A stretch of 64,000 nt of DNA from Candidatus Vogelbacteria bacterium (GTDB lineage: Bacteria > Patescibacteriota > Minisyncoccia > Phycocordibacterales > XYD1-FULL-46-19), in NCBI GenBank assembly GCA_903864935.1, contig CAIPHT010000015.1, positions 6,618-70,617 of the forward strand. Direction: 5' to 3'. The position numbers and the translations under genes were made by a program. Below the pieces are notes generated by a model. The model was not told where the DNA came from and made no database searches. It was given only the letters and a program-made list of their open reading frames with translations. This document shows positions 9,887-46,304 of this stretch, piece by piece; position 1 is the first letter of the stretch, and the number at the start of each line of letters is the position of its first letter.

Positions 9887-9935
9887 TCAAGGGCGTGCCT
9901 TGATTAAAAAATAGGCTAGTCTTATAATTATCTTC

Positions 9936-10610: not shown

Positions 10611-10638
10611 ATAAAAAATAATCAAGGCACGCCCTTGA

Positions 10639-11835
10639 TTATTGGGGAGAGGTTTGATTTTTTAATTCTTCAACAATTTGCTCGTGAGATTTTCTCTTTG
10701 GCCAGACTAAATTACCATCAGTATCATAAATAGGGATTAAGAGCTCCGGGGTATGGCCATACGTTCTTAGTAAAAGATTTCCTAAATCATCAACAACTCT
10801 GTCTGCATCAATAAAGTCTTTTTCGCGAAGAGAGATTAGGTCAATGACAATCCCTCTAAAAGATGTTGGTTTTATGCTTGGAGTTAACACAAAACCATAT
10901 TCAGAGGTTGGAACAGGCCGGCCTTCTTCATTGAAGCTCCCAACCATATACCCTTTTTTGTTTCTTAAATCTTCCCTGGTAAGATCTCTGCCTTGAGCTT
11001 TTTTCATTTCTTCGTAAAGACCAAAGAGTTGGGGGTCATTGTGTTGGTATTTTTTCCCCTCAATAATTTTGTCTTTATTTCTGTAAATAGAACTTTCTTT
11101 CCCTTCGCCAGGTAACTCATCGAAAGATTCTATGTCGAATAGTAAGGCAATAGAATTTGGAGAAATCCAGTGAGAACTAGCAATTTCAGTTTTACCTATA
11201 GAAAAATATTTTTTTTCATGTCCGCCTCGACCAGTTATATTAAAATGAACAAAAACATTTTTACCCCCTTCAGGGGATCGGTTCTTCTCATATGAAGTTA
11301 GGGCCTTATCTATAAAACCTTCTCTATCTAGGCGATCATCGTCTTCATAATTTAATCCCAATAACCCACGATTTAAGATTCTTCTTATGTTAAACAATTC
11401 TTTTCTCCAGTCTTCCTCGAAAGCTTCTTTCTCCCGTTCCGGCAAACTGTTCCACATTTCCCATATTTCTTGTTCAACTTGAACTCTGGTCTTTCCTTTT
11501 GTTGGCCAATCTCTTGTTTTTTGCTCGGCTTCTTTCGCTAATCTGTTAGATTTCCATATTGCAGCTATATTCGAATAGGCGGTCCCTTTTGCGTCAATAT
11601 CCTGGACTTTAGTCATAATCTTTTCGATCACCTCTGGTGTTAATTTAATTTCTCCTTTATGAGGGACAGCTTCTCTCCGTTTAATATCCAACAATTCATC
11701 TTCAAGATCATATTGACCGCCAGAAAATGAACCTTTTTGTCCTGGATGTTTTTCACCAAGACTTGTTCTTAATTCCTCGGCTTCTTTGAGGGCGTCGCCT
11801 AAATTTAGTGGTTTTTGTTCAAATTTTTCAGGCAT
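10639..11835 (-). CDS. Hypothetical protein (398 aa)
   Basis: Long clean ORF with no recognisable motif. Confidence 0.5.
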   Translation of the reverse strand: MPEKFEQKPLNLGDALKEAEELRTSLGEKHPGQKGSFSGGQYDLEDELLDIKRREAVPHKGEIKLTPEVIEKIMTKVQDIDAKGTAYSNIAAIWKSNRLAKEAEQKTRDWPTKGKTRVQVEQEIWEMWNSLPEREKEAFEEDWRKELFNIRRILNRGLLGLNYEDDDRLDREGFIDKALTSYEKNRSPEGGKNVFVHFNITGRGGHEKKYFSIGKTEIASSHWISPNSIALLFDIESFDELPGEGKESSIYRNKDKIIEGKKYQHNDPQLFGLYEEMKKAQGRDLTREDLRNKKGYMVGSFNEEGRPVPTSEYGFVLTPSIKPTSFRGIVIDLISLREKDFIDADRVVDDLGNLLLRTYGHTPELLIPIYDTDGNLVWPKRKSHEQIVEELKNQTSPQ

Positions 11836-25469: not shown

Positions 25470-25970
25470 ATGTTGGATTTAATTTTTAGATCAGAATCTC
25501 CACAACTTGAGAAAGAGGCTCAGGAGTATATAGATATTTGGAGTCAGCAAGGAGAAAATATTTTGGGCGTTCTTGAGAAGGTCTCCGGTCTTGAATTTAA
25601 ACAAAAGAAGATTGAGGTTCTCGTCTACGAAGGCCCCAGCTCTTCTGGGGGGCCGGAGATTCCAATGAAATTGCGTGCCAGCTACAGCAAGGAGGTCAAA
25701 ATGGGCACCTTGGTCCATGAGCTTGGACATCGCCTACTTGAATCCCTGTCTTCTCGACCCGAAGGACTTGACGAACATCAGACCTTGAACCTTTTTCTTT
25801 ATGATTCTTGGTTTGAGCTATTTGGTAAAAATTTTGCCGATATGATGGTTGGGGTTGAGAGTGAGAGAAAGGGAATTTACGATTACAAAAAAGCTTGGGA
25901 CTGGTTTTTGTCCTTGTCTAAAGATGATGGCAGTTCTTTGCGGATAAAATTATCTGATAAAAATAAATAA
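25470..25970 (+). CDS. Hypothetical protein with an HExxH zinc-metallopeptidase motif
   Basis: VHELGHRL. Confidence 0.4.
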   Translation: MLDLIFRSESPQLEKEAQEYIDIWSQQGENILGVLEKVSGLEFKQKKIEVLVYEGPSSSGGPEIPMKLRASYSKEVKMGTLVHELGHRLLESLSSRPEGLDEHQTLNLFLYDSWFELFGKNFADMMVGVESERKGIYDYKKAWDWFLSLSKDDGSSLRIKLSDKNK

Positions 25971-26505: not shown

Positions 26506-27375
26506 ATGCTAAAAATCATTGTGAAGAAGGATATCGAGAAAGACATTGCCCTAATAAAAAGAGAGCTTTTTGATGGGGGAGAGAATTACCGTCAGAGGAT
26601 TTTGAGTTATTATAAAACTTTGGCTGAAGAAATTAAGAACAAATCAAGAGAAGAAGCCGAGGAAATTGCCGATAATTTTTTCCGCAGGCAATACCATAAG
26701 ATGGCAGAAGATATTGACGAGATTGTTAAGGAGAGCCAAGAAATTTTAGAAGATAGATCAGAAGCTTGCCTCAATAAGCTTGTCGAACTAATGGACTATA
26801 AAATAAAAAGGGACGAAGAGTTTGTGGTTATTCCTACGTTGTTACCATATTCTCCTTTCCATCGGCCAACCGTTTATTTTTCTTTAATTACTCGACTGTA
26901 TTTGGGTAGAGGAAACATGATTTTGGATATCGCTATTCACGAGATATCCCACTTCTTATTTTTTGATATATTGAATGAGATTGGAGCGGATATCATAAAA
27001 ATTGAACCTAAAGAGTTTGGCTTCTGGTATCTCTTTAAAGAAGCTCTGACAGGGATGCTCTTGTCAGAAAAAGAGTTAGAAGATTTACTTGAAAGAAAAG
27101 GTTATAAGGGTAATCCTGAAGTTGAGAATCTCTCTGTCCAGAAAGAGGGCTCGGCTGATAAGATAACGCTAAGAGAATATTTAAGAGAAAGGCTCAACGA
27201 CCATAAGCAGAACGGCTCATGCTTTAATTCCTTTATTAAAGAGATTATTTCTGAACTCCGACCTCAAGTGGAAGCCTTTGAGGCAAAGAATAATTTTTGG
27301 GTTAAGAATGAGGAGGAAATAAAAAAATGGAATCAAGATTTAATTAGAGAGTACGAGGAGCCAATTTTAATTTAA
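26506..27375 (+). CDS. Hypothetical protein with an HExxH motif
   Basis: IAIHEISHFLF. Confidence 0.4.
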   Translation: MLKIIVKKDIEKDIALIKRELFDGGENYRQRILSYYKTLAEEIKNKSREEAEEIADNFFRRQYHKMAEDIDEIVKESQEILEDRSEACLNKLVELMDYKIKRDEEFVVIPTLLPYSPFHRPTVYFSLITRLYLGRGNMILDIAIHEISHFLFFDILNEIGADIIKIEPKEFGFWYLFKEALTGMLLSEKELEDLLERKGYKGNPEVENLSVQKEGSADKITLREYLRERLNDHKQNGSCFNSFIKEIISELRPQVEAFEAKNNFWVKNEEEIKKWNQDLIREYEEPILI

Positions 27376-27382
27376 TTACAAA

Positions 27383-27982
27383 ATGAAAAAGATTGGTGAA
27401 GGTTGGCAATATGGTGTCTATGATTTAGAGAACGGGCGGGTGTTGAAGAAATTTCACTCACCGCTAAAATCGTACTGGGTAATATTAAAAGATATTTTTC
27501 CTTTTAAACAGGATTCGATTTTTGAGATACCCGGTTTTTCGCGGGGGATGAAAGTTAAGGCCCTTGAGTCATTCGAAATTCTGAAAAAGAAAAATCTCCC
27601 GCCGGAATGGCTGGGGAATCCTAAATTTATAAATGATCTAGACTTCGAGCAAGATAAGGCCTTTCCTCTCCATGACATTTTTTCTCAATCCGAGGTTGAA
27701 GAAGCGAAGGGGATTATTGATAAATTTGTTGAGTTTAATAAAAAGTTATTAGAGAGAGGGGTGATAGATAAGAGCTTTAACATCACTAAGAATTATGGGC
27801 TAAATAGTGACGGAGAAATTGTCTTGATTGATATTGGAGAATTATTTGATAATCCGGAAAGAATAAAAGAACAATGCGCGGGTCGCGCTTGGGCCAAGGA
27901 TTATGTTGCTGGCCGTATTGCCAATGACGTGGCAAGAGAGTATTTTATTAAGGAGATGGATAAGAATTTTGAATCTAATTAA
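27383..27982 (+). CDS. Hypothetical protein, possibly an atypical kinase-like fold
   Basis: Gly-rich IGEGWQYGVY followed by VLKKF, and later LIDIGE. The call is weak. Confidence 0.3.
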   Translation: MKKIGEGWQYGVYDLENGRVLKKFHSPLKSYWVILKDIFPFKQDSIFEIPGFSRGMKVKALESFEILKKKNLPPEWLGNPKFINDLDFEQDKAFPLHDIFSQSEVEEAKGIIDKFVEFNKKLLERGVIDKSFNITKNYGLNSDGEIVLIDIGELFDNPERIKEQCAGRAWAKDYVAGRIANDVAREYFIKEMDKNFESN

Positions 27983-28501
27983 ATGAAAAAGAAAATCACC
28001 GTAAATGATTTAATGCAGAAGGGCTATATTTATTATCTCACGGAGTTAGAAGGGAAGAATTTTGCTAAAGACTTCAAACCGGATTTGTCGCCCAAACAAA
28101 TGCTTAAGTTGGGTGTCTTCGGTGGGCGCTATATGCGTGATTGCCAGAAAGAGTTTCCATCAGACTGGTTCAAGGGGGCCAAACTCTTGCCGATGGGAGT
28201 GAGGGGTCATGATCCTAAATTAAACCTCTTCGGGGTAGATGCTTCGCAGCCACTTGCGGTGTGGCGCAAGAAGGGCTGGATTAATGAAGAGCATGACCCG
28301 AGGGGTTGGTTCCAATGGTACTGTCGTTATTATCTGGGGCGTCGTTTGCCAGAGGAGGATGAGAAACAGATTAAGCGTTGGCGCGCCATTAATCGTCATT
28401 TGGCACAGTTAAGAAAAAACTGTAGGGTCGGGGATCTAAATTGCCGCCGTCGCCAACGTCAGGCTGTTCTCCACTGGGCCTATGATAGTCGCAAAATTTA
28501 G
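27983..28501 (+). CDS. Hypothetical protein
   Basis: ORF only. Confidence 0.4.
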   Translation: MKKKITVNDLMQKGYIYYLTELEGKNFAKDFKPDLSPKQMLKLGVFGGRYMRDCQKEFPSDWFKGAKLLPMGVRGHDPKLNLFGVDASQPLAVWRKKGWINEEHDPRGWFQWYCRYYLGRRLPEEDEKQIKRWRAINRHLAQLRKNCRVGDLNCRRRQRQAVLHWAYDSRKI

Positions 28502-29925: not shown

Positions 29926-30007
29926 GCCTTATTGGCGGACTTGACAGGCTTTTGGGTAGTTATTATAATCAAGAAAGTATTTTATTATTAATTAGTCACT
30001 AATTTAG

Positions 30008-31084
30008 ATGAAAAACAAAAAATTGTTATGGCTCGTGGTTGCTGTCATTATTATTGTTGTTCTCGTTATTATCTTTAAATCTTCTCCTGCTAAGACGGCT
30101 CTCACTTCTGAGTCCGGCACCTTCACCGTTGGGGCTGTCCTCCCTATGACTGGTCCGGCTGCTCTCTGGGGCGAGACGGTTAAGAACGGTATGGAGTTGG
30201 CTCTTGCTAAGAAGTCGGGGATTAAGGTCCTCTATGAGGATAGTAAGTCGACGGCCGCTGATGGTATCTCCGCTTATAATTTATTGCAGAGCAAGAAGGT
30301 AGATCTCACTGTCTCTGAATTATCTCTGGTGGCCGTTCCTCTCTCTAAGATTGCTCTTGAGACCAAAGCTCCACTCTTGGTTTCTCTTGTGGCCGCTAAA
30401 CATACCTCAATTGTTAATGATTATACAACTCGTTATTATACTAATCCGACTAACTATGCGACCCCCGCTTTTACCGATGCAATGTCTCCCGTTCTTAAGG
30501 CTAAGAAAATTGCTCTCCTTACTCGCAATGACGAACTCGGGATCTCTGTTCGTGACAAGATTAAAGAGTTAAGCTCTGCTAATGGCAAAGAGATTGTCTA
30601 CCAGGATTCTTTTGTTCCGGCTGAGAAGGATTATCGCACAACCCTCTTGAAGGCTAAGAACTCTGGTGCCGACGTCTTCATCTTTGTCGCTTCAACTCCG
30701 GGCGAAGCTCTGGGGATTGTAAAGACTGCCAGTGAGATTAAGCTTGGCATGCCAATTGTTGAGTCATCCGCTGTTTTTGCTGATCTGGCTACTCGCAAGC
30801 AGGCTGAAGGGATTTCTTTCTACGCTACTTCTTATGATTTTTCTCTCCCCGGCAAGGCTGAAGACTTCAAAACTAGTTATCTCGCCAAGTTTGGCAAGGA
30901 ACCGAATTTTGGTGCGGCCTTTGGTTATGACATGGTTAATCTGATTGATGTCTGTAAGGCTAAGAAAGAAGCGGTTCGAGATTGTCTCTCTGGAGTCAAA
31001 CAACTCGAAGGTGTTGCTGGTGTTGCCACTCAAGTTGAAGCCGGTGACTTTGTTGTCCCAATGCATCTAGAGAAAGTAAACTAA
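30008..31084 (+). CDS. Periplasmic-binding-protein type I (LivK-like, branched-chain amino acid binding family) with an N-terminal membrane anchor
   Basis: GAVLPMTGPAALWGETVKNGMELA is a typical Leu/Ile/Val-binding-protein start. Confidence 0.7.
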   Translation: MKNKKLLWLVVAVIIIVVLVIIFKSSPAKTALTSESGTFTVGAVLPMTGPAALWGETVKNGMELALAKKSGIKVLYEDSKSTAADGISAYNLLQSKKVDLTVSELSLVAVPLSKIALETKAPLLVSLVAAKHTSIVNDYTTRYYTNPTNYATPAFTDAMSPVLKAKKIALLTRNDELGISVRDKIKELSSANGKEIVYQDSFVPAEKDYRTTLLKAKNSGADVFIFVASTPGEALGIVKTASEIKLGMPIVESSAVFADLATRKQAEGISFYATSYDFSLPGKAEDFKTSYLAKFGKEPNFGAAFGYDMVNLIDVCKAKKEAVRDCLSGVKQLEGVAGVATQVEAGDFVVPMHLEKVN

Positions 31085-31112
31085 GTTTCAAAAGTTTTAA
31101 GTATAAAAAGTA

Positions 31113-31142
31113 AAGCGCCTCGGGTCGAAACCCGGGGCGCTT
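31113..31142 (-). terminator. Hairpin terminator serving the minus-strand high-GC gene, with a T-tract on the minus strand
   Basis: aagcgcc-tcgggtcgaaacccgg-ggcgctt. The minus strand continues with tactttttatac. Confidence 0.5.
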
Positions 31143-31183
31143 GTCGAATGTTGGGAACGTGGACAGTACTTGTTGCGGAGGGC

Positions 31184-32200
31184 CTAGGCCTTCTTGCCTT
31201 CGGACTCCGGCGGGGTGGCCTCGTCTTCGGGTTTGACCAACTTTGTGACCTCGGCGAGGAGCTCAAGCAATGAGTCGCGGGCATCGCTGGCGTCGTTGAT
31301 GCGCTCGGCGAGCCCCTCGAGGTCCTTGCGGTAGGTCCTGATGTTGTCCTCGAGGCTGTTGCCCTCGGAGTCCTCTTCGATGTTGTCGAGGAGATCCCCG
31401 ATTTCCTTCTTGAGGGCGTCGATGGCTTGGAAGGCCCCGTAGATGCCGGTGTCGTTGTCATCCAACGCGACGGCACGGGCTTTGAGGGCCTCGAACTTGG
31501 CCTTCAACTCTTCGGCTGGGCCCATGAGTTTCTCTGCGGCTTCGATACTCGCCTTGTGGTCGGCGAAGTATCCGTTTATGCGGTTATACTTGGCCTTGGC
31601 GTCATTATCTCCCTCGTCTTCGAGGTTGGACAGGCCTTTGCGAATTTCGTCATCGACATTGTCGGCGTCAGACAGAGCCTGGTCGCGCAATCTCCGGGCT
31701 TCTTGCAACCGGTTGACTCGATTCTTGATTTCCTCTTGCCTGGCCACGAGTTCCTCAACTTGCCGCATTTGTTCATCGTGACCCAAGTTGGCTTTCTCGA
31801 ATTGCTCCGTTCTGGCTAGCTGGTCGGCCAGCGAGAGTTTGAGTTCTCCCACTTTGTGGGCGGGACTTTCTTCTTTGAGACCCTCCATAACTTGTTCAAT
31901 CTCTCTCCCTGTCCGGCCACTTTTGTTGAGCATGTAGTCGGTACTTGCTCTCCAGTCTCTCAGCTTGATGTTTTCCTGGACCAGCTCGCGTTTTTTGTAA
32001 GCTTGGACCAGGGAAATGAGCAGGATAGCCACGAGACTTAAGGCTATGGCACCGGCGCAGCGTTTGTCCAGATCGGTCGGGTTGTTGGCGACCATTTCGA
32101 CAACGTTGTCGTTTTGGTGGAGTGATACGCGGGGGGTTGTGGCAATGACAACCAAACTCCCCACCACAAAAATCAAAAACAGCAATTTCACAAGGTTCAT
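31184..32200 (-). CDS. Membrane-anchored coiled-coil protein (339 aa) in a high-GC island
   Basis: The start was set at MNLVKLLFLIFVV, preceded by GAGGGAG. The protein carries long acidic coiled-coil segments and has about 55% GC. Confidence 0.5.
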   Translation of the reverse strand: MNLVKLLFLIFVVGSLVVIATTPRVSLHQNDNVVEMVANNPTDLDKRCAGAIALSLVAILLISLVQAYKKRELVQENIKLRDWRASTDYMLNKSGRTGREIEQVMEGLKEESPAHKVGELKLSLADQLARTEQFEKANLGHDEQMRQVEELVARQEEIKNRVNRLQEARRLRDQALSDADNVDDEIRKGLSNLEDEGDNDAKAKYNRINGYFADHKASIEAAEKLMGPAEELKAKFEALKARAVALDDNDTGIYGAFQAIDALKKEIGDLLDNIEEDSEGNSLEDNIRTYRKDLEGLAERINDASDARDSLLELLAEVTKLVKPEDEATPPESEGKKA

Positions 32201-32349
32201 CTGACGTTCTCCCTCATTTTTTCCGCCGGAGCGGAACAAGTTTTCCTGAGCGGAATGCCCAGGTCTGGGCATACATATAGCACTAAAGGTAAGGGGTGTC
32301 AATGGCTACTTCTTGCTATTTTTTAAGAATAGTGATATAATTAGAATAT

Positions 32350-33424: not shown

Positions 33425-34318
33425 ATGAGCAAGATTGCAATTATCGGCGCGGGAGAATTAGGTCAGGCCTTGGGGGAGATTCTTTCTTCTTCGCGAGAGG
33501 TTTTTTATTGGGATCGGAGTGAAGACCAATTGGCCAAGCTAAATTTACCCTTACTTTCTTTACCTGAAGTTGTGGCGGGAGCGGATTTTGTTTTTCTCTG
33601 TATCCCATCTTGGTGCGTAAGAGAGGCTCTCGCTTTTCTCTTGCCTTATTGGCCGGTCTCGGCGACCGCTGTCTTCTTCTCTAAGGGCATAGATGGGCCA
33701 ACGGGCAAATTACCCTTTGAGATGGCACAAAAATTGTTACCTAAGAAAGTTGATTTTGTTGTCGTGTCTGGCGCGATGATTGCTGAAGAAATTCGGACCG
33801 GACATTTTGGCGCTTGTCTGGTGGCCTCTAAGGGGCTTGAACCAAGCCAAAGAGTGGCAGAGATTTTTGCGGGGACGAATATTATGGCCGTTCCCTCGGC
33901 CGACCTTAAGGGCGTGGCCTGGGCTGGTGCTCTTAAGAATATTTATGCTCTAGGTGTCGGTATTGCTGAGGGTCTTGATTGGACGGTCAATGAGCGAGGA
34001 CTTCTCTTTGGTCAAGCCAACGAAGAAATTTTGAAATTGATTAAGCTCTTGGGTGGCAAACGTGAGACTTGGCTTATGGCCCCAATTTTGGGCGACTTTG
34101 CTGTTACCAGTTTTGACAATCATTCGCTTAATCATCAGGTTGGATTAGAACTTGGCCGTAATGGCCAGACCGAGAAGCGAAGCGAGGGCACCATGTCTCT
34201 GGCTCCGCTCATTGATCGCCTGAAGAAAAAAGGCCCCAAGGATTTTCCCATCCTCTTCAATCTTGCCCAAATCATCATCGCCCACGAAGATCCGAAGAAA
34301 GTCTTCGGAAAGTATTAA
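33425..34318 (+). CDS. gpsA: NAD(P)H-dependent glycerol-3-phosphate dehydrogenase
   Basis: IAIIGAGELGQALG Rossmann fold plus ALKNIYALGVGIAEGLDWTVNERGLLFGQANEEILKL, which matches the GpsA catalytic region. Confidence 0.75.
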   Translation: MSKIAIIGAGELGQALGEILSSSREVFYWDRSEDQLAKLNLPLLSLPEVVAGADFVFLCIPSWCVREALAFLLPYWPVSATAVFFSKGIDGPTGKLPFEMAQKLLPKKVDFVVVSGAMIAEEIRTGHFGACLVASKGLEPSQRVAEIFAGTNIMAVPSADLKGVAWAGALKNIYALGVGIAEGLDWTVNERGLLFGQANEEILKLIKLLGGKRETWLMAPILGDFAVTSFDNHSLNHQVGLELGRNGQTEKRSEGTMSLAPLIDRLKKKGPKDFPILFNLAQIIIAHEDPKKVFGKY

Positions 34319-34333
34319 ACCCTCCCCACCGCC

Positions 34334-34373
34334 CCCGCCAGACCTCGGGCTCTCTTGAGGTCTGGCGGGTTTC
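34334..34373. repeat. REP-like hairpin H1 (cccgccagacctc-N10-gaggtctggcggg) plus a T-tract. It terminates gpsA and is the inverted member of a three-copy family.
   Basis: 13-bp stem. Its reverse complement matches the hairpins at 43772-43811 and 46204-46238. Confidence 0.65.
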
Positions 34374-34465
34374 TATGCCCTTGACAAATAGGTCTATTTG
34401 GGTCTATAATGATAGACAGATAATCGAGACAGTGATGTCTCACAACAATCCCGTGAGGGAACCCG

Positions 34466-34906
34466 GTGACGGGAAGAAGGAATCTCGAAATGAACTTTGG
34501 CAAAGGTACCGTTAACGCCATCCTCCAAGGTCAGAGGAACCTCGACCAGATGAGAGAAGAAGTCAACCAGTTTCTTGGCATGCTCGTTGGTATGGTGTCG
34601 AGCGACGAGTGGGGCAGGTTTTTGGGTAAGGCTAACTCGGCCTCTATCCCCAGCCCGATTGTCACGGTGGGTGACTCCCCCTGTTACTGGGAGTTCCGGG
34701 TCAGCAGACCAGTCCCCTTCGAGTTGTGGTTTGTTTATGGACACAGAGGCGAGGAGGTCTACAACTTCAAGGGACAGTGGAAAGACCTCAAGTACGTGGA
34801 GTTGGTCCGTGGACAACTTCATGAGCTCTTGAAGCTCTTTGTTGATACCTTCCCTGGTCTTGAAGGCCGCCTCCAGCCCTTCCTCAAGGCCTCTAAGATG
34901 GTCTGA
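34466..34906 (+). CDS. Hypothetical protein (high GC)
   Basis: ORF only. The composition is atypical. Confidence 0.4.
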   Translation: MTGRRNLEMNFGKGTVNAILQGQRNLDQMREEVNQFLGMLVGMVSSDEWGRFLGKANSASIPSPIVTVGDSPCYWEFRVSRPVPFELWFVYGHRGEEVYNFKGQWKDLKYVELVRGQLHELLKLFVDTFPGLEGRLQPFLKASKMV

Positions 34907-34912
34907 TTACCG

Positions 34913-34960
34913 CCCCGCACAAGAAGCCTCGCGCTTCATGTGCGGGGCTTCTTTGATTCT
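34913..34960 (+). terminator. Rho-independent terminator
   Basis: ccccgcacaagaagc-ctcgc-gcttcatgtgcgggg followed by cttctttgattcttcc. Confidence 0.6.
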
Positions 34961-34967
34961 TCCTCAA

Positions 34968-35008
34968 ATTTATTAACATTACTGACGGTCGTCACAAACT
35001 GTAATAAA
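34968..35008. repeat. P-element copy P2 (imperfect palindrome with core ctgacggtcgtcac), downstream of the PaaX-like gene
   Basis: The core TGACGG-N-CGTCA is shared with P1 and P3-P6. Confidence 0.6.
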
Positions 35009-35037
35009 TTTTCAATGTGAGTAAACAAAAAAGGAAA

Positions 35038-35556
35038 TTAAATAATATCCGTCTCTTTAACTTCAAAAAATTTCAGATGAGGAATAAGTTTCATATATTT
35101 GAGATCCTCAATAAATTCTTTTGGTAATGGAGCTGGGCCAAGCCAGACACTTTTTTGTAAGAGTTTAAAGTTTAGATGGAGCAATTGAAGACGTAGCCAA
35201 TTTCTATTTTTTCTCTCTGCTTCTGGTACGTCAAAAGTAATGATAATTTTTTTGTCTGATTTAGGAATAGGGGGATAGGAGGGATGCTTTTTATCTTGGC
35301 CTTGTTTTTTTGCTTTTTCCTTTCCTTGCCTCGTTGTCTCCCAAAAGTGACCATCATTCTTTACTAGCCCGTTTTTCTTGAGTCTTGAGAGTGTCACACG
35401 AAAAGAATTTTCTAGGGCTTTTATCTCTGCCCTTCTTCTTTTGTTTTGGTCTATTTGATCTTCTAAATAAAGATCACCCAGCATCAAAGATCTTAGCTGG
35501 CGATAATTTCCTGGGTGATTGGACAAGAGGATTAGAATTCTATCACTTATTCTCAT
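35038..35556 (-). CDS. PaaX-like transcriptional regulator (winged HTH plus a PaaX_C/Cas2-like C-terminal domain)
   Basis: wHTH region FRVTLSRLKKNGLV, and IIITFDVPEAERKNRNWLRLQLLHLNFKLLQKSVWLGP matching the PaaX_C consensus (W..s..vPE..r.lRd.lr..L.wlGF..lq.SVW..P). Confidence 0.55.
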   Translation of the reverse strand: MRISDRILILLSNHPGNYRQLRSLMLGDLYLEDQIDQNKRRRAEIKALENSFRVTLSRLKKNGLVKNDGHFWETTRQGKEKAKKQGQDKKHPSYPPIPKSDKKIIITFDVPEAERKNRNWLRLQLLHLNFKLLQKSVWLGPAPLPKEFIEDLKYMKLIPHLKFFEVKETDII

Positions 35557-35567
35557 ATCTCTAAAAT

Positions 35568-35600
35568 ATTACACTAAATGACGGTCGTCTAAAATGTTAA
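35568..35600. repeat. P-element copy P3 (core atgacggtcgtcta), upstream of the PaaX-like gene
   Basis: Shares the core motif with the other P copies. Confidence 0.55.
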
Positions 35601-35660
35601 TAAGTGGATAATGATGAGTTGGTTGGGGGGTGTGACTAAAGGTGAAAAGAGAAAATATCT

Positions 35661-36110
35661 TTAGAATAAACTCTCCACCACTTCTTTAATCACATTGCCG
35701 TCGGCGGCGCCTCTGGCTTCTTTGGAGATGGCGCCGATGAGCATGCCCATCTTTGTTTTGTCGGTGACACCGAGTTCGGCTTTTTTGGCTTCGGCGATTT
35801 TCACAATTTCTTCACGAGACATCTGGGCGGGAAGGAAGCTCTCGACAATGGCGAGTTCTCGCTTCTCACTCTCAGCCATCTCTGGGCGGTTGCCAATGGT
35901 GAATTGCTCGATCGATTCTTTGCGTTGTTTAGCGAGACGCTTGAGTACTGTGAGAGCCCCATCGTCGTCGATAAGTTCATCGGGTTTCTTGCCCTTGGCC
36001 ATTACTTCGCTAGTAAAGGCACTGACAATATTTCTAAGGGCACTTAAGCGCTCAGCTTCTTTGGCGAGCATGGCTTTCTTAATCTCGTCTTTGATTTGTT
36101 GGTGTAACAT
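35661..36110 (-). CDS. GatB/YqeY domain protein
   Basis: MLHQQIKDEIKKAMLAKEAERLSALRNI is a typical YqeY start. Confidence 0.8.
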   Translation of the reverse strand: MLHQQIKDEIKKAMLAKEAERLSALRNIVSAFTSEVMAKGKKPDELIDDDGALTVLKRLAKQRKESIEQFTIGNRPEMAESEKRELAIVESFLPAQMSREEIVKIAEAKKAELGVTDKTKMGMLIGAISKEARGAADGNVIKEVVESLF

Positions 36111-36152: not shown

Positions 36153-39100
36153 TTGAACAGATTTGCTATAATCTGGAGAATGATTACCGAAGAATTTAAA
36201 GAAGCTTATAAACGCTTAAACAAGGCCCAGAAGGAAGCGGTAGATACTATCGAGGGGCCAGTCTTGGTAGCGGCGGGGCCGGGGACAGGCAAGACGCAGA
36301 TCTTGGCCTTGCGTATTGCTAATATTTTACTCAAGACTGATGTTAAGCCTGAGAATATCTTGGCCATTACTTTTACTGAGTCGGGAGTGCTCGCAATGAG
36401 ACGACGTTTGGCTGAAGTTATTGGGACACCGGCTTATGCGGTCTCGATCAACACCTTCCACGGTTTCTGTAATGATATTATTAAAGACGAGCCCGAGAGC
36501 TTCCCCAATATTATTGGAGCGACCAACATTACAGATGTTGATCAGATTCGGATTCTCGAAGAAGTGTTGTCCGAAGGAAAGTTTTCTGAACTCGTTACTC
36601 GTAATGACCTTTTCTATTATCTGCGCGCTATACTCTCGGCGATCAATGAGCTTAAACGCGAGGGCGTGAGCGTGGAGAGATTCCAAAAAGAAATTAAACA
36701 AGGTCTAAAAGATTTTGAGAGTATCCCCGATCTTTATAATGAGAAGGGCAAGTATGCTGGTCAGATGAAGACGAAGTACGCGGATGAGCAGAAGCGTTTG
36801 AGGAAAAATGAAGAGCTGGGTGTTATTTATGAAGCTTATCAGGCCAAGCTTCGTAAAGAGAAACATTATGACTATACGGACATGATTAGTGAGGTGGCCG
36901 AAGTTCTCGCCGAGAACCCTTCGACAAGCTCAGGGCCGGCCAATCAGCTCCTTCTTAAACTTCAAGAGCAGTATCAATATATCTTGGTTGATGAGCACCA
37001 GGATACGAATAATGCTCAGAATAAAGTGGTTGAACTTCTGGCTAATTATTTTGATAATCCAAATTTGTTTGTAGTGGGAGATGACAAGCAGGCGATATAC
37101 CGCTTCCAAGGAGCCTCTTTAGAGAACTTTCTATATTTCAAACAAAAATATCCTGAGCTTAAATTAATTGTCCTTGAAGAAAATTATCGTTCGAGCCAGA
37201 TGATTCTTGATGCTGCGGATAGTTTGCTTTCTGGCGACAAGAAGCTAAAAGCAAAAAGTGGTCACGAAGACGAGCCTGTGAAACTTTGCGAGTTTAGCCA
37301 GAAGGCGGTAGAAGATTATTTTCTTGCTCAAGATATTTCTAATAAGATAAAGTCTGGCATCGCGCCTGAACAAGTCGCTGTCTTTTATCGTGATAATGGC
37401 GACGTCTTTGCTATTGCCAAAGCTCTTGAACAAGCCGGTGTCCCGGTGGTAATTGAGTCTAATCAGGATATCTTGAGCGATATTGATTTGCACAAGCTTG
37501 TTACTATATTTCGTGCGGTTGAGAAGGTTGGTGACGAGAAATTATTTGCTGAGACCTTACATATCGATTTTCTTAATTTCCCTCCACTTGAAGTTTATAA
37601 ATTAATTCAAGAGGGCTACAAAAAGAAGATTTCTATCATCGACTTAGCTAAAGATAATGAGGTCTTTTCTGCTTGGTGTGAGAAATTTATGAAGCTGGCT
37701 GGTGTGGCGAAGAATGAAGGCTTGGCCGAATGCTTCGAACATATTGTTCGCGAGAGTGGATTCTTGAATTACCTTTTGTCTAAACCCGAGACGGTCGAGA
37801 AACTTGAGAAATTGAATGGCTTATTCACTGAAGCCAAGGGCTTAATCGAAAGGCATAAAGAAGGGCGGTTGTCTGATTTTATTAGCTATCTCGATCTTCT
37901 CTCTACCCACAACATCTTACTTAAGAAAAGTGCTGAGGCCGTTGCTTCGAAGAGAGTAAGGTTGATGACTGCTCATAAGTCTAAGGGCTTGGAGTTTGAA
38001 CATGTCTATATCACCTATGCTTATGACGGTCACTGGGGCAATAAGAAAAAACGTGACTTAATAAAATTGCCGAGACATATTTTTTCCCTTACCGAAGATA
38101 AGGCTGTCGAAGAAGACCCTTCGACTACGCTCAGGGCAAGCAACGATGATGAGAGGAGGTTATTCTATGTTGCTTTAACTCGAGCCAAGAAGACGGCCAC
38201 AATTACTTATTCGCGCCAAGATGAGAATAAACGGGAATTATTGCCATCGCAATTTATTAGTGAGCTTAAGCCCGAACTCGTAGAGAAGATGGATGTGTCT
38301 AAATATGAACAGAGTTTTGCTGAGCATCCCGAGATAATTTTTTCTCCGCGGATTTCTAAATCTGTCTCGGTGCAAGATAAGGAGTTCGTTAAGACTCTTT
38401 TTGAAGAACGGGGTCTGGCCGTGACTCATCTCAATAATTATCTTAAATGTCCGTGGAATTATTTTTATACTAATCTTTTGCGTCTGCCTAAGGCGCAGGC
38501 CCCACACTTAATGTTTGGGACGGCGATTCATGGGGCGCTCGAAGATTTTTTCAAGAAGTTTGGCGGAGATGAAGATCCTGACAAATCGTATCTGTTGGCA
38601 CGTTTTGAAGATTACTTAAGCAAGCAACCGCTCATGGCGCGCGATTACGGTTCTCTCTTGGAGCGAGGAGAGAGGGATCTTGGTGGTTATTATGACTTCT
38701 GGCAAGGACAATGGCGCACACGAGTTCTCACTGAATTTAATATTCCTGGAGTGGTGCTTACTCCGGAGATTCGTCTGACTGGTAAGGTAGACAAGATGGA
38801 ATTCTTTGGTGATGGAGGAGAAGTTAACGTCGTTGATTATAAAACTGGCAAGCCTAAGACTCGCGGTTATGTGGAGGGTAGCACTAAGAATTCTGAAGGG
38901 GATATCAAGCGCCAAATTGTTTTTTATAAATTATTACTCGACAATTATATGGATGGCAAATATAAGATGGTGAGTGCCACTATTGATTTTGTCGAACCGG
39001 ATGAGAAAGGCAAATATAAGCAGGAAAACTTCACGGTAATGCGTGAAGAGGAAGAGGAATTAACTGCTCTAATTAAAAAAGTCTCAGCCGAAATCTTGAA

Positions 39101-39173
39101 TCTCGACTTCTGGGACAAAAAATGTGATGACCCGGATTGCGAATTTTGCTCTCTTCGCGAGATGATGCAATAA
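36153..39173 (+). CDS. UvrD/PcrA-family helicase fused to a C-terminal PD-(D/E)xK nuclease with an Fe-S cysteine cluster (AddA/AddB-like single-chain helicase-nuclease)
   Basis: Walker A AAGPGTGKTQ, helicase motifs (DEHQDTN, VVGDDKQAIYRFQGA), a C-terminal VVDYKTGKPK...QIVFYKLLL nuclease core, and CDDPDCEFC at the C-terminus. The true start may be the ATG at 36180 after a TATAAT at 36165-70. Confidence 0.8.
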   Translation: MNRFAIIWRMITEEFKEAYKRLNKAQKEAVDTIEGPVLVAAGPGTGKTQILALRIANILLKTDVKPENILAITFTESGVLAMRRRLAEVIGTPAYAVSINTFHGFCNDIIKDEPESFPNIIGATNITDVDQIRILEEVLSEGKFSELVTRNDLFYYLRAILSAINELKREGVSVERFQKEIKQGLKDFESIPDLYNEKGKYAGQMKTKYADEQKRLRKNEELGVIYEAYQAKLRKEKHYDYTDMISEVAEVLAENPSTSSGPANQLLLKLQEQYQYILVDEHQDTNNAQNKVVELLANYFDNPNLFVVGDDKQAIYRFQGASLENFLYFKQKYPELKLIVLEENYRSSQMILDAADSLLSGDKKLKAKSGHEDEPVKLCEFSQKAVEDYFLAQDISNKIKSGIAPEQVAVFYRDNGDVFAIAKALEQAGVPVVIESNQDILSDIDLHKLVTIFRAVEKVGDEKLFAETLHIDFLNFPPLEVYKLIQEGYKKKISIIDLAKDNEVFSAWCEKFMKLAGVAKNEGLAECFEHIVRESGFLNYLLSKPETVEKLEKLNGLFTEAKGLIERHKEGRLSDFISYLDLLSTHNILLKKSAEAVASKRVRLMTAHKSKGLEFEHVYITYAYDGHWGNKKKRDLIKLPRHIFSLTEDKAVEEDPSTTLRASNDDERRLFYVALTRAKKTATITYSRQDENKRELLPSQFISELKPELVEKMDVSKYEQSFAEHPEIIFSPRISKSVSVQDKEFVKTLFEERGLAVTHLNNYLKCPWNYFYTNLLRLPKAQAPHLMFGTAIHGALEDFFKKFGGDEDPDKSYLLARFEDYLSKQPLMARDYGSLLERGERDLGGYYDFWQGQWRTRVLTEFNIPGVVLTPEIRLTGKVDKMEFFGDGGEVNVVDYKTGKPKTRGYVEGSTKNSEGDIKRQIVFYKLLLDNYMDGKYKMVSATIDFVEPDEKGKYKQENFTVMREEEEELTALIKKVSAEILNLDFWDKKCDDPDCEFCSLREMMQ

Positions 39174-39511
39174 TAGATGTTGTGAAATTAGAAAATAACC
39201 AAGAAAAACATGACCCCATAGCAGACTTACGAGTTTGGCGTTTTAGCTATTCGGACGAAATACCAAAAGAAATTATTCGTGGTTCTGGACACGCAATAGA
39301 ATACAAAGTCAAGAAAACTTCCTGGATGATTCCTGTTGGGTGTTTATCCCTTTTAGTTTATTCTGGGAGGTTAGATGGGGAACTTAAGGAAGAAGCCGAA
39401 AGATTTATAGAAAAATTTAGTTCAGAATCTTTTAATCAACGCTTAGTTACTGCTGAAGACATCGCCGAAGCTAATTCTCTTATTGATAGAGTTTTACAAT
39501 CAATAAAATAA
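39137..39511 (+). CDS. Hypothetical protein (its start is uncertain; a GTG at 39182 is possible)
   Basis: ORF that overlaps the helicase 3' end. Confidence 0.3.
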   Translation: MRILLSSRDDAIIDVVKLENNQEKHDPIADLRVWRFSYSDEIPKEIIRGSGHAIEYKVKKTSWMIPVGCLSLLVYSGRLDGELKEEAERFIEKFSSESFNQRLVTAEDIAEANSLIDRVLQSIK

Positions 39512-39512
39512 A

Positions 39513-39552
39513 ATGTTATCAAAAATTGACGGTCGTCAAAAAGTGTTAACAT
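39513..39552. repeat. P-element copy P4, a 40-nt near-perfect palindrome atgttatcaaaaattgacgg|tcgtcaaaaagtgttaacat
   Basis: Its right half is identical to that of P1. Confidence 0.75.
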
Positions 39553-39586
39553 TGGGATTTATTGCTGGGCCTAATCTTTTGTGCTA

Positions 39587-39649
39587 GTTTGAGGTCAGAC
39601 TAGAAACTCAAGTGGCTCTAAGGGGCCCTAACTAGTGGAGGATTTTGTT
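39587..39649 (+). promoter_or_regulatory. Conserved leader R1: a possible promoter (TTGTGC...TAGAAA), a conserved hairpin ggctc-uaag-gggcc and the SD GGAGG. It is about 87% identical to R2.
   Basis: Aligned by eye to 40134-40206. The GGAGG-N8-ATG geometry is identical in both copies. Confidence 0.5.
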
Positions 39650-39862
39650 ATGAAAAATGGCAGGAAGAAACCGGTATTAAAAACCGGAACGAGGAGTCTG
39701 GCCGATGTCCATCTTCCTCACATGGAGACACCGCCCGTTCCTCGGCAGGCCATCCGTGGGTGTGGCGTCATTGGAGGGCGGTCTGTCTTACCTGATGACC
39801 TCTCCAGTGGGTCAGGTTTTGTCGCCCGGGAGATTGATATCCTCAAGGGTGACGAGAGGTAG
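39650..39862 (+). CDS. Small hypothetical protein (70 aa), cassette 1
   Basis: ATG 8 nt after GGAGG. High GC. Confidence 0.45.
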   Translation: MKNGRKKPVLKTGTRSLADVHLPHMETPPVPRQAIRGCGVIGGRSVLPDDLSSGSGFVAREIDILKGDER

Positions 39863-39878
39863 AGTTTTCAGTGTTTGT

Positions 39879-39906
39879 GCCCCGCGTCGGCAAGCCGACG
39901 CGGGGC
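39879..39906 (+). terminator. GC-rich hairpin T1 (gccccgcgtcggc-aa-gccgacgcggggc), near-identical to T2
   Basis: 13-bp stem. There is no strong T-tract after this copy. Confidence 0.45.
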
Positions 39907-39946
39907 AGTGTCATTTATAGATCACTTAAAGAAGGACAAGTTAACA

Positions 39947-39985
39947 GGTAATAAACTGTTCACGGTCGTGAGCGGTTTATTACCA
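39947..39985. repeat. P-element copy P5 (ggtaataaactgttcacgg|tcgtgagcggtttattacc)
   Basis: Imperfect palindrome with the core cacggtcgtgag. Confidence 0.55.
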
Positions 39986-39995
39986 TTCACAAAAA

Positions 39996-40035
39996 ATGTT
40001 ATCAAAAGTTGACGATCGGCAGGGATTGATAACAT
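39996..40035. repeat. P-element copy P6, a degenerate relative of P4 (atgttatcaa...ttgacgatcggc...ttgataacat)
   Basis: The arms atgttatcaa/ttgataacat are perfectly complementary, while the core is degraded. Confidence 0.5.
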
Positions 40036-40133
40036 TACCCCCCCTCATCATTCCTCGCCATACCCCAAGGGAGCCCCGCCTGCCTTGCGTTGCAAAGCAT
40101 TGCGGTCAGGCCGAGGTGTGGCGGGTTTTTTGG

Positions 40134-40206
40134 TTTTGTGCTAGTTTGAAAACAGATTGAAAACTCAAGTGGCTCTAACGGGCCCTAACCAGTGGAGGAT
40201 GTTGCT
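40134..40206 (+). promoter_or_regulatory. Conserved leader R2, a paralog of R1
   Basis: About 87% identity to R1 over roughly 75 nt, including ttttgtgctagtttga and aaactcaagtggctctaa. Confidence 0.5.
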
Positions 40207-40581
40207 ATGTCTCAGAAGAAGGTTTCAGTCAGGTTTTTGTACGGTTTTGGGTTCGACTCACCCCGCCGTCGTAGCGGGCCCACTGTTGCAATAAACCTCG
40301 GGGCGTTATTTAGCCTTGTCTATAGATTTGCCGAAGAGATATCTTTGTTGGCAGACAAGGAGGGGGGCTATTTCATCATTGAGGCCGTGGTCGACCAGAA
40401 CGGGGAGAATTTTTCTTCTAGACCTGACGTCAAAGGGTGGAAAGACTCATGCTTCCTCGGCCGAAGACAGGACGACTTTTGTATTCGAGAAGGGAAGCTT
40501 CTGGTCTCGAATAAAGAAGTCACTCCGGCAGAGGCCTCCAGCTTTGTTTGGAATAAGTTCAAGGAGGCTTCTAAGGGGTAA
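40207..40581 (+). CDS. Small hypothetical protein (124 aa), cassette 2
   Basis: ATG 8 nt after GGAGG. Unrelated in sequence to the cassette-1 ORF. Confidence 0.45.
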   Translation: MSQKKVSVRFLYGFGFDSPRRRSGPTVAINLGALFSLVYRFAEEISLLADKEGGYFIIEAVVDQNGENFSSRPDVKGWKDSCFLGRRQDDFCIREGKLLVSNKEVTPAEASSFVWNKFKEASKG

Positions 40582-40606
40582 TCTTGGTAAATTTGTGCCC
40601 CGTGTC

Positions 40607-40645
40607 GGCTTGCCGACGCGGGGCACCTTTTATTTTGTATCCACC
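40607..40645. terminator. Hairpin T2 (gccccgtgtcggc-tt-gccgacgcggggc) plus ccttttattttgt. It overlaps the 3' end of the convergent MFS gene and is probably bidirectional.
   Basis: Near-identical to T1. A T-tract follows. Confidence 0.6.
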
Positions 40646-41820
40646 AAGTCCCAAGCGAATTTGAAGCCGAGGAGCATGACGAGGCCGAGACAGATAAAAA
40701 TATATTTGAATTCGAACGAAGTAAGAATCAGCGAAACAAAAATTGGTCCAAGGAGATAAGAGAAAGGAACGCTGATGCGAGAGAGAGCCACAATTCCTGA
40801 ATCTTTGCCCGAGATTTTTTTGAACAAATAAGTCTCTTTCATAATCTCAATACTGGCGGCCCCGGTGCGGGTGATGAAGAGAAGGATGGCCCAGAGGACC
40901 CAATTGGTAGTATTCAAGAAAGAGCAGGCGATGGTTGAGGCGACAATAATGAGTATCCCGCCAATGAGAATCTCTTTCTCGCCAAGATATTTGTCAGCAA
41001 TACGTCCAAGCGGTAGCTCGAAGAGAACGAAGGGTAGAAGCATCACGGTGAAAGTGAGACCAATCTGTTCCCAAGATAAGCCAACATGATTGTGAAGATA
41101 TAGAGGCATATAAACGACCATCACGGCGTAGAAAAAATTAAGCAAAAAATCAACCACAAGAATCCGATGGATATTGCCCGCTTCGGGAATCCTCTTACCC
41201 CAGATATTCTTGAGGCTCGCCCAGACCGAAGCGCCTGGGACCACACAGTGGGGGCAACTCGTCTCCTTAAGACCAAGAGTGATGATTAAGAGAAGGGGGA
41301 TAAGGATAGTGCCCGCGAGTCCATAAACCAAACCATAATTGCCCGTGCTGGCGAGGTACCCAGCAAGAAAAGGTGAGACCAACCAAGCGAGATTGTAGAA
41401 AGTTGAGTAGACGCCGCGGATAAGACCGGTTCCCTGGTCGGTCGAGATATTCTCAAGATAAACATCAAGCACGTAGCGCACCAGGTAACCAAGTATAATA
41501 TAGAGACTGAAGGCTCCAAGCGCGACAAAGATCGTTGGGGTGTAGCCAAACATTGGTCCAGCAATTGGGAGAATGGAGAGAAAAGAAATAACCGTGAGCC
41601 AGAACAAAACTTTTCTATTTCCAAAATGGCTGATGAGCCTTGGTGTGGAGATCATCAGGATTATGGTAATGATTGAGGTGAAGGCGTAGAGGAAACCAAT
41701 CTTTGTTTCGGGAATATAGTTTGCGAGGAACGAAGAATTAATATAAGCCGGGAGCGAAGAATAGGCCGCCATAAAAACGGCACCAATATAAGTGTAGATG
41801 CGTAATTTTTTATTTAACAT
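40630..41820 (-). CDS. MFS transporter
   Basis: Twelve predicted TM helices. The MFS motif region GRIADKYLGEK is present. Confidence 0.75.
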   Translation of the reverse strand: MLNKKLRIYTYIGAVFMAAYSSLPAYINSSFLANYIPETKIGFLYAFTSIITIILMISTPRLISHFGNRKVLFWLTVISFLSILPIAGPMFGYTPTIFVALGAFSLYIILGYLVRYVLDVYLENISTDQGTGLIRGVYSTFYNLAWLVSPFLAGYLASTGNYGLVYGLAGTILIPLLLIITLGLKETSCPHCVVPGASVWASLKNIWGKRIPEAGNIHRILVVDFLLNFFYAVMVVYMPLYLHNHVGLSWEQIGLTFTVMLLPFVLFELPLGRIADKYLGEKEILIGGILIIVASTIACSFLNTTNWVLWAILLFITRTGAASIEIMKETYLFKKISGKDSGIVALSRISVPFSYLLGPIFVSLILTSFEFKYIFICLGLVMLLGFKFAWDLVDTK

Positions 41821-43759: not shown

Positions 43760-43771
43760 AAAAGGGTGTGG

Positions 43772-43811
43772 CCCCCGCCAGACCTTAAGGGAGCCCAAGG
43801 TCTGGCGGGGG
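43772..43811. repeat. REP-like hairpin H2 (cccccgccagacctt-aagggagccc-aaggtctggcggggg)
   Basis: 15-bp stem, a member of the H1/H3 family. It lies downstream of the minus-strand binding-protein gene. Confidence 0.65.
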
Positions 43812-46177: not shown

Positions 46178-46203
46178 TAGGCTTATTCTAGCACACCCAC
46201 GCT

Positions 46204-46238
46204 CCCGCCAAACCTCAAGTGAGCCCAAGGTCTGGCAG
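46204..46238. repeat. REP-like hairpin H3, a decayed copy with three stem mismatches
   Basis: cccgccaaacctc-aagtgagccc-aaggtctggcagg. Confidence 0.5.
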
Positions 46239-46304
46239 GACAAAGCTTTTAGTGGTATTATAATAGGGTCAAAATTATCATTAATTATTTTATAAAATAT
46301 TATT

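Follow-up and report, generated by a model that had tools for sequence, protein, structure and literature searches.

How do two adjacent genes that share nothing in their coding sequences come to stand between nearly the same leader and nearly the same terminator? The question arises from a segment of a Candidatus Vogelbacteria chromosome (GenBank assembly GCA_903864935.1, contig CAIPHT010000015.1, positions 6,618 to 70,617 of the forward strand), which was analyzed over its whole length of 64,000 nt and is referred to here as the window. Two small open reading frames (ORFs) in it, ORF1 and ORF2, are each preceded by one copy of a leader, R, and followed by one copy of a GC-rich hairpin, T; copies of a palindrome, P, lie next to them. 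An earlier description made from the letters alone, hereafter the sequence-only reading, had interpreted this layout as a reusable expression cassette wrapped around different cargo genes. On balance, we favor a more local explanation, in which an accessory insertion of ∼1.46 kb at a hot spot consists of a small gene, orfA, and two autonomous single-gene units resembling phage morons, whose R/T flanks were duplicated or recombined on the spot.

Near-identical flanks enclose unrelated ORFs

The leaders R1 and R2 align without gaps over 76 nt, ATG included, at 87% identity, a self-match of the window that blastn returned with an E value of 2e-14. The sequence-only reading had given much the same identity; the repeat proved slightly longer than drawn there and runs through the ATG, where the homology ends. 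A 28-nt core, AACTCAAGTGGCTCTAA(G/C)GGGCCCTAAC, is the same in both copies except for one loop base and occurs twice in the window against an expectation of zero. The conserved 5-bp hairpin (GGCUC-UAAS-GGGCC) and the GGAGG-N8-ATG spacing described earlier are present in R1 and R2 alike. At the other end of the modules, T1 and T2 (40592-40625) are 91% identical, with folding z-scores of −7.2 and −6.1, in keeping with their earlier description as near-identical GC hairpins. Each was called terminator-like on the + strand and lies 13 to 15 nt past the stop codon of its module. The heptamer TTTGTGC opens both R and T at the 5′ edge.

Between these flanks, similarity drops to the null level. Local alignment of the interior DNA of ORF1 and ORF2 yielded a score of 20 (null, 17.8 ± 2.1) and that of the proteins a score of 23 (null, 23.2 ± 4.2), and no pair of frames did better, which bears out the claim that the two ORFs are unrelated. 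Because the flanks are only 9 to 13% diverged and the interiors are at random level, the ORFs must already have differed when the flanks were copied, and a one-step tandem duplication is excluded. With paralogous flanks around nonparalogous ORFs, a plain tandem duplication of one gene cannot explain the locus; the pair would rather have arisen when the regulatory flanks were recombined or duplicated.

Scans of the window that allowed up to 3 mismatches detected no further R or T, and a covariance model of R run over 320 kb (the window plus ∼256 kb of related loci) retrieved only the two known copies. Exact scans for the R core in species-representative genomes (genome_contigs), JGI metagenomes (metagenome_contigs), and IMG/VR viral contigs (viral_contigs) gave 0 matches, as did an exact scan for T in the IMG/VR contigs only. 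R and T are one adjacent pair, local to this place, with no sign of wider reuse, and the idea of an expression cassette reused beyond this locus is not supported. Two copies are indeed what a simple local duplication would leave, but the homologous ORFs that it would also leave are missing. The features are compiled in Table 1.

Table 1. Features of the insertion and of its two modules, in window coordinates
Feature	Position	Strand	Description
Insertion	39174-40629		Separates the stop codons of the helicase-nuclease (+) and major facilitator superfamily (MFS) transporter (−) genes, which are convergent
orfA	39182-39511	+	Small conserved protein; GTG start at 39182 suggested by homologues (gene callers: TTG at 39146)
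P1	39512-39553	+	Stem-loop directly after the orfA stop codon; TTGACG-N12-TGT-TAACAT; putative promoter (plus terminator or operator) of module 1
R1 leader	39577-39652	+	Hairpin 39614-39627, GGAGG 39637-39641, ATG 39650-39652
ORF1	39650-39862	+	70 aa, orphan
T1	39874-39907	+	TTTG, then 14-bp GC hairpin; putative terminator of module 1
P2	39947-39984	+	Degenerate copy, center CACGGTCGTG, 17-bp stem
P3	39995-40036	+	TTGACG-N12-TGA-TAACAT, + strand only; putative promoter of module 2
Branched GC-rich hairpin + T6	40053-40131	+	Between P3 and R2; fold of −37 kcal/mol
R2 leader	40134-40209	+	Hairpin 40171-40184, GGAGG 40194-40198, ATG 40207-40209
ORF2	40207-40581	+	124 aa, orphan
T2	40592-40626	+	TTTG, 15-bp GC hairpin, T-rich tail; putative terminator of module 2

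The modules lie in a lineage-specific insertion at a hot spot

The gap between the convergent helicase-nuclease (UvrD and PD-(D/E)XK domains) and MFS genes measures 1463 nt in the window and only 9 to 16 nt at five related loci (L010, L012, L023, L029, and L037). At five others it holds unrelated inserts of ∼86 (L017), ∼186 (L009), ∼440 (L030), ∼844 (L021), or ∼1755 nt (L011). A junction that is empty in five relatives and differently filled in others identifies the segment as an insertion specific to this lineage, at a hot spot that has been used repeatedly. When the insertion was compared by blastn with all related loci, the P palindrome was the only match, and R, T, ORF1, and ORF2 were found in none of the other relatives' inserts at this junction. 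The L021 insert contains small ORFs with their own Shine-Dalgarno (SD) sequence and terminator. That of L011 (8943-10693, 1.75 kb) carries a canonical promoter right after the helicase stop codon, a tRNA-His gene (9255-9329), and two ORFs, and is unrelated to the insert of the window.

The sequence-only reading had placed the cassettes immediately downstream of the helicase-nuclease gene; in fact, orfA intervenes. Sequence comparison indicates that orfA is a real gene, with homologues P0005 (49% identity) and P0006 (43%) and a common C-terminal motif, RLTTAEDIAEAN. The genes for these homologues reside in other contexts, with ordinary terminators downstream and without R or T. A functional link between the modules and the helicase-nuclease was also considered and rejected, since relatives with 49 to 89% identical helicases, in metagenome-assembled genomes labelled Candidatus Paceibacterota, Saccharibacteria, or Patescibacteria, lack the modules; judged from this distribution, the helicase is a neighbor of the modules and not their partner. 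The labels of these helicase relatives also identify the window as part of a chromosome from the Candidate Phyla Radiation.

P palindromes as putative promoters

Members of the P family have the center TGACGGTCGTCA and AT-rich arms that end in TGTTAACAT-like sequence. The window contains six copies, namely a perfect one of 40 bp at 874-913, two at ∼34965-35005 and ∼35565-35605, and P1 to P3, which the sequence-only reading had rightly located beside the modules. All six lie just 3′ of a gene end, five of them inside two insertion islands, and the right arm of P1 is identical to that of the 874-913 copy. The relative L013/L024 bears three tandem copies (1326-1450); no P was found in the 15 kb examined of the closest relative, L009, and an exact scan of the IMG/VR contigs for P retrieved no match.

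The −10-like hexamer of P occurs 11 nt before the ATG (925-927) of a pseudouridine-synthase-like gene and 9 nt before the ATG of a PaaX-like gene, distances that would fit a leaderless-mRNA promoter combined with a stem-loop. From its sequence and placement, P may be a lineage-wide promoter plus stem-loop element resembling the promoter-early stem-loops (PeSLs) of T4-type phages. Its anatomy agrees with a 2026 preprint in which promoter/terminator coupling, and palindromes doubling as operators, are described as widespread. The term promoter-leader, applied earlier to R, was thus half right: R qualifies as a leader, but a consensus scan detected no sigma-70-like promoter within it, and the sole promoter-like element is the upstream P. 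A PaaX-like regulator (35038-35556), flanked by two P copies, was considered as a candidate for the protein that binds P, but P-bearing relatives are without a homologue in the loci examined.

Module 2 differs from module 1 by an extra GC-rich segment of ∼97 nt extending from P3 to R2, with a hairpin and T6 at its end. The tail of this hairpin resembles other CCCCGCC...GGCGGG terminators in the genome, and no Rfam family matched the structure at an E value of ≤10. It would be an attenuator or else a terminator left behind by a module since lost.

A second island with conserved flanks around different ORFs

A comparable situation was encountered in island A (34318-35666), which sits between the convergent genes gpsA and yqeY; these genes are adjacent in L010, L012, and L023. 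The island is composed, in this order, of a terminator, a canonical promoter, a GC-rich ORFan of 141 to 146 aa, a terminator, P, a PaaX-like regulator (Cas2-like domain, PF20803), and P. The sequence TTGACA-N17-TATAAT at ∼34381-34410 is an example of the canonical promoters that this genome does use outside the R/T region. L013 has an island (392-1475) at the orthologous gpsA/yqeY junction, and comparison of the two gave a local score of 25 for the promoter-leader region (null, 9.0 ± 1.6; maximum of 16 in 1000 shuffles), along with 80% identity of the terminators and 85% of a P palindrome. The ORFs inside (141 versus 128 aa) have no detectable similarity, and the homology stops near the start codon. 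These sequence comparisons suggest a second case of conserved flanks around different ORFs, which points the same way as the R/T pair.

An element of ∼150 nt (76% identity over 148 nt) with inverted ends GTTAAACAAC...GTTGTTTAAC was noticed at L009 ∼8979-9112, in the helicase/MFS junction, and at L013 ∼408-555, in the gpsA/yqeY junction. It has the look of a miniature inverted-repeat transposable element (MITE), or of a small structured-RNA element, inserting at convergent junctions.

How the pair may have arisen

In the account that we favor, transcription of each module would start at the P stem-loop with its TTGACG...TGnTAACAT pair, where incoming transcription may also be terminated or attenuated. 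The transcript would include a 5′ leader, the final 76 nt of which are R and provide a strong GGAGG-N8-ATG start, would encode an orphan protein, and would terminate at T, the GC hairpin. The two copies of R, like those of T, would be paralogous, and an ORF would have been placed or exchanged inside an existing leader/terminator frame by recombination or duplication of the flanks, with no dedicated cassette-mobilizing system behind the pair. This may have happened in either of two ways. Recombination at the flanks may have inserted or swapped an ORF, for instance if a circular R-ORF-T-P segment integrated by a single crossover, as the mini-circle model for PeSLs has it, or a tandem duplication may have been followed by replacement of one ORF. 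With two copies, these routes are not distinguishable.

Several points weigh against this account. Two copies of R and T are too few for any test of covariation, population, or distribution, and R1 and R2 share no identical tract beyond one of 18 nt, which gives no hint of a very recent homologous exchange. The consensus promoter scan, which accepts spacings of 16 to 18 nt, calls nothing in 39100-40800, the hexamers of P being 15 nt apart. The hairpin plus T6 upstream of R2 would stop P3 transcripts short of ORF2 unless it is read through. ORF1, modeled as unstructured by AlphaFold2, is perhaps not a gene. Finally, the similarity between island A and that of L013 could reflect ORFs that diverged past recognition within constrained flanks, an alternative that stays because the genomes are distant.

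The best-surviving rival, unlikely in our judgment, is an old tandem duplication of a P-R-ORF-T unit, with the flanks kept by purifying selection or gene conversion and the ORFs diverged, or ORF1 decayed to an open noncoding remnant. In its favor, the two units have the same collinear succession of P, R, and T, the predicted structure of ORF1 is disordered and its coding score poor, and flanks do outlast ORF similarity between genomes in the comparison of island A with L013. However, at the observed flank divergence homologous ORFs should still show, whereas the interior DNA is exactly random and the ORF lengths are 70 versus 124 aa. It would moreover be unusual for selection alone to hold a 76-nt leader without a conserved fold at 87% identity, and identical tracts this short are a poor substrate for gene conversion.

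The favored local account admits a bolder extension, to which we would give a minor chance: conserved promoter-leader and terminator/palindrome modules might serve as movable adaptors by which orphan genes are captured and exchanged at convergent-gene hot spots, a cellular counterpart of PeSL shuffling, of which the R/T pair and the island A/L013 pair would be products. Were this true, bacteria of the Candidate Phyla Radiation (CPR), with their tiny genomes, would gain and turn over orphan genes by slotting ORFs into ready-made expression frames at a few permissive convergent junctions. The conserved flanks would provide both the expression signals and the homology for exchange, extending a mechanism of T4-type phages to bacterial chromosomes, and P, R, and T could serve as probes for fast-turnover accessory genes in metagenomes. 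The present basis for this extension is one two-copy example and one cross-genome parallel.

Coding status of ORF1 and ORF2

Both ORFs are orphans. Each matched only itself among 5.8 billion protein clusters (in a word-indexed search for ORF2), and neither could be assigned to a family by Pfam, PADLOC, or PHROGs. When all 1.84 billion representatives were scanned with HMMER, ORF2 gained one match, a repeat protein of 5830 aa, which was discarded because its score is inflated by 21 near-identical repeats at ∼25 bits each; the pairwise E value is 0.007. The GC content is 55.7% in ORF1 and 49.7% in ORF2, compared with 42% in the helicase gene. For both ORFs the annotated frame is the best of the six, with coding scores of 0.08 (ORF1) and 0.14 (ORF2) versus 0.28 ± 0.06 for host genes. 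The single-sequence AlphaFold2 model of ORF2 combines strands and helices at low confidence (pLDDT, 57; pTM, 0.45), and a fold search of this model against the PDB returned nothing at an E value of ≤0.001. That of ORF1, also of low confidence, is essentially without secondary structure (pTM, 0.11). ORF2 is probably a real orphan gene encoding an α/β protein, as far as the model goes, and the coding status of ORF1 is doubtful.

These data bear on another explanation, in which the R...T units are noncoding RNAs that agree at the 5′ end and in the 3′ hairpin and vary in between, the ORFs being chance frames in GC-rich sequence. We consider it quite unlikely. It would account for the orphan status of both ORFs, for the several overlapping open frames that span both interiors, for the predicted disorder of ORF1, and for the slightly better folding of the interiors than of shuffled sequence (z = −1.8 and −2.3). 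Yet these z-scores are unremarkable, no Rfam family matches even at an E value of ≤10, a canonical GGAGG-N8-ATG is kept before both ORFs, the annotated frame ranks first in each case, and the ORF2 model has regular α/β secondary structure. Nor did the interiors look like guides or antisense sequences to other loci of the window, the longest match being ≤14 nt.

Two minor observations concern the ORFs themselves. A near-palindrome inside ORF2 (40474-40521; GACTTTTGTATTCGAGAAGGGAAGCTTC...) has arms of 24 to 28 nt that are ∼80% complementary. ORF1 is present on an ENA/NCBI record of sample ERZ1426711, and contigs of the BUCK21-1 metagenome assemblies (SAMEA68729xx) carry both ORFs. The source organism recurs in several ENA assemblies, whose contigs match the window except for a few single-base differences and one 33-nt contig end: in contig L008 (sample SAMEA6872941), nt 1 to 33 diverge fully upstream of 39835, within the 3′ end of ORF1, and have no match in the window or in the related loci examined. 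This end would be an assembly chimera or else another cargo allele of module 1.

R as a leader and T as a putative terminator

The 5-bp hairpin is the only fold common to R1 and R2. A three-way junction predicted in R1 (z = −1.6) is broken in R2 (z = +1.5) without compensation, and Rfam searches of the whole window at the gathering threshold and of 39300-40800 at an E value of ≤10 returned tRNAs and noise only, with R unmatched. Having no Rfam family, no shared fold beyond the hairpin, and no internal promoter, R is read as a plain 5′ untranslated region and ribosome-binding region. It would instead be a cis-regulatory RNA if the hairpin next to the SD sequence were the sensor of a small riboswitch or protein-binding leader defining one regulon. 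The near-invariance of the core, hairpin included, and its position directly 5′ of the SD sequence would suit such a role, but the lack of an Rfam match, the uncompensated loss of the junction in R2, and the absence of R from every other gene of the window and its relatives, which would leave an odd regulon of two adjacent orphans, make it improbable. A promoter for a single-subunit RNA polymerase of the T7/T3 type in R (CTCTAAGGGG compared with CACTAAAGGGAGA) was dropped, given the superficial likeness, a −1 base that is not the same in R1 and R2, and the absence of any such polymerase.

By sequence and predicted fold, T appears to be a hairpin of the intrinsic-terminator type. The stems of T1 and T2 differ at one position only, which still pairs as G-U in RNA of the + strand but becomes an A-C mismatch on the − strand; this fits a T that acts on the + strand. 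T2 ends 3 nt from the MFS stop codon and probably also terminates that convergent gene. Near-identical terminator hairpins at separate loci are common in this genome (a 34331/43771/46201 family and a family at 9879-10641 flanking a REP-associated tyrosine transposase [RAYT]; REP, repetitive extragenic palindromic), so the reuse of T is not unusual here; T differs from the RAYT-associated hairpin. The former is a three-copy GC hairpin family (stem CCCCCGCCAGACCT...) at the unrelated positions 34331-34369, 43771-43809, and 46201-46239. The RAYT itself is an IS200-like Y1 transposase (Pfam Y1_Tnp, 9936-10610) with REP-like hairpins AATAATCAAGGGCGTGCCTTGATTA at 9879 and, inverted, at 10614, and a third, intragenic copy at 10089.

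Comparison with known systems

The sequence-only reading professed not to recognize the arrangement. It does not fit an integron in any feature tested, but analogues have been described, the closest functional ones apparently being phage PeSLs and morons. PeSL cassettes of T4-type phages (Arbiol et al. 2010, PMC2839356; Comeau et al. 2014, PMC4122927) consist of a stop codon, an AT-rich stretch, −35 and −10 boxes with an overlapping stem-loop, an SD sequence, and a start codon, and are located upstream of ORFans in hyperplastic regions (PMC2839356). There are ∼50 per phage genome, the ORFs between similar motifs are unrelated, and the motifs have been proposed as homology for modular exchange (PMC2839356, PMC4122927). 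Recombination at PeSLs would show as swapped or excised ORFs, indels between sister genomes, and mini-circles (mini-circle model, PMC2839356). The P palindromes match this anatomy in layout and the R/T frames its logic: P has the succession of stop codon, hexamer pair, and stem-loop, but with the hexamers 15 nt apart and no promoter called by the consensus scan. Other differences are the setting (a CPR chromosome segment with housekeeping genes and no phage similarity found, not a T4-like myovirus), the numbers (6 P per 64 kb, and two copies each of R and T), and the 76-nt leader and separate GC terminator, which have no counterpart in the compact PeSL. No sister strain with alternative cargo was found here, and no mini-circle or exchange is documented; the homologous flanks around unrelated ORFs, within this genome and between the window and L013, are indirect support for exchange. 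The locus is best called PeSL-like by analogy, in view of its layout and of the ORFans and hyperplastic site that go with it, and is not a strict member of the PeSL family.

Phage morons, reportedly described by Juhala and colleagues in 2000 and by Hendrix and colleagues, are autonomous units of promoter, gene, and terminator that stand as inserts between other genes; PMC2839356 uses the term as well. Like morons, the modules each consist of one small gene equipped with a promoter-like element and a terminator, are set between two conserved genes, have a composition unlike that of the neighbors, and are absent from close relatives. They differ in that morons are not defined by flanks common to each other and in the lack of a prophage context: no match turned up in phage records, ORF2 and orfA have no IMG/VR relatives, and no PHROGs family was assigned. 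The locus appears to be a case of regulatory DNA reused locally, in the manner of phage morons and PeSLs, rather than a new cassette system.

The resemblance to integrons had been part of the sequence-only reading and rests on an array of small, promoter-dependent cargo ORFs, repeated boundary elements, and a variable region. It did not survive closer inspection. Among the ORFs of ≥150 aa at ∼25 to 51 kb scanned with Pfam there is no integrase, and of the attC cores, RYYYAAC is found nowhere in the insertion and GTTRRRY only at 39335 and 39370, inside orfA. Integron cassettes are mostly promoterless and share a common Pc promoter, whereas each unit here has its own P, the putative promoter, and its own terminator; there are only two units and no attI. 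A dedicated genome-wide cassette system in which R and T, or the TTTGTGC heptamer, are recombinase recognition sites is very improbable, for, although the homology breaks off at the start codon and close to the stop codon, the heptamer opens R and T, and the locus is in an insertion hot spot, there is no third R or T in the window, the 256 kb of related loci, or the public collections scanned (IMG/VR alone for T), no integrase or recombinase domain among the ORFs tested, no attC-like core in the modules, no transposase in the window other than the RAYT with its own, different REP hairpins, and no R or T in other inserts at the hot spot.

REP sequences, bacterial interspersed mosaic elements (BIMEs), and MITEs offer a further comparison. 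Short palindromic repeats do occur at gene 3′ ends at several loci of this genome (the RAYT REP-like hairpins and the 34331/43771/46201 family), and relatives carry the ∼150-nt MITE-like element at two junctions, but R and T are not dispersed, and R is nonpalindromic and carries a ribosome-binding site.

Neighboring genes

The same Pfam scan recovered, among the neighbors, the helicase, the MFS transporter, RNase J, YqeY, GpsA, the PaaX-like protein, and others. No Pfam match was obtained for the ORFs at 25470-25967, 26506-27372, 27383-27979, and 27983-28498 or for a 372-aa ORF at 31187-32302. The last of these is on the minus strand within a 2.4-kb segment (29928-32311) that is missing from the closest relative, L009, and also contains a periplasmic-binding-protein gene (30008-31084). 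A 400-nt block inside this segment (31201-31600) reaches a GC content of 60%.

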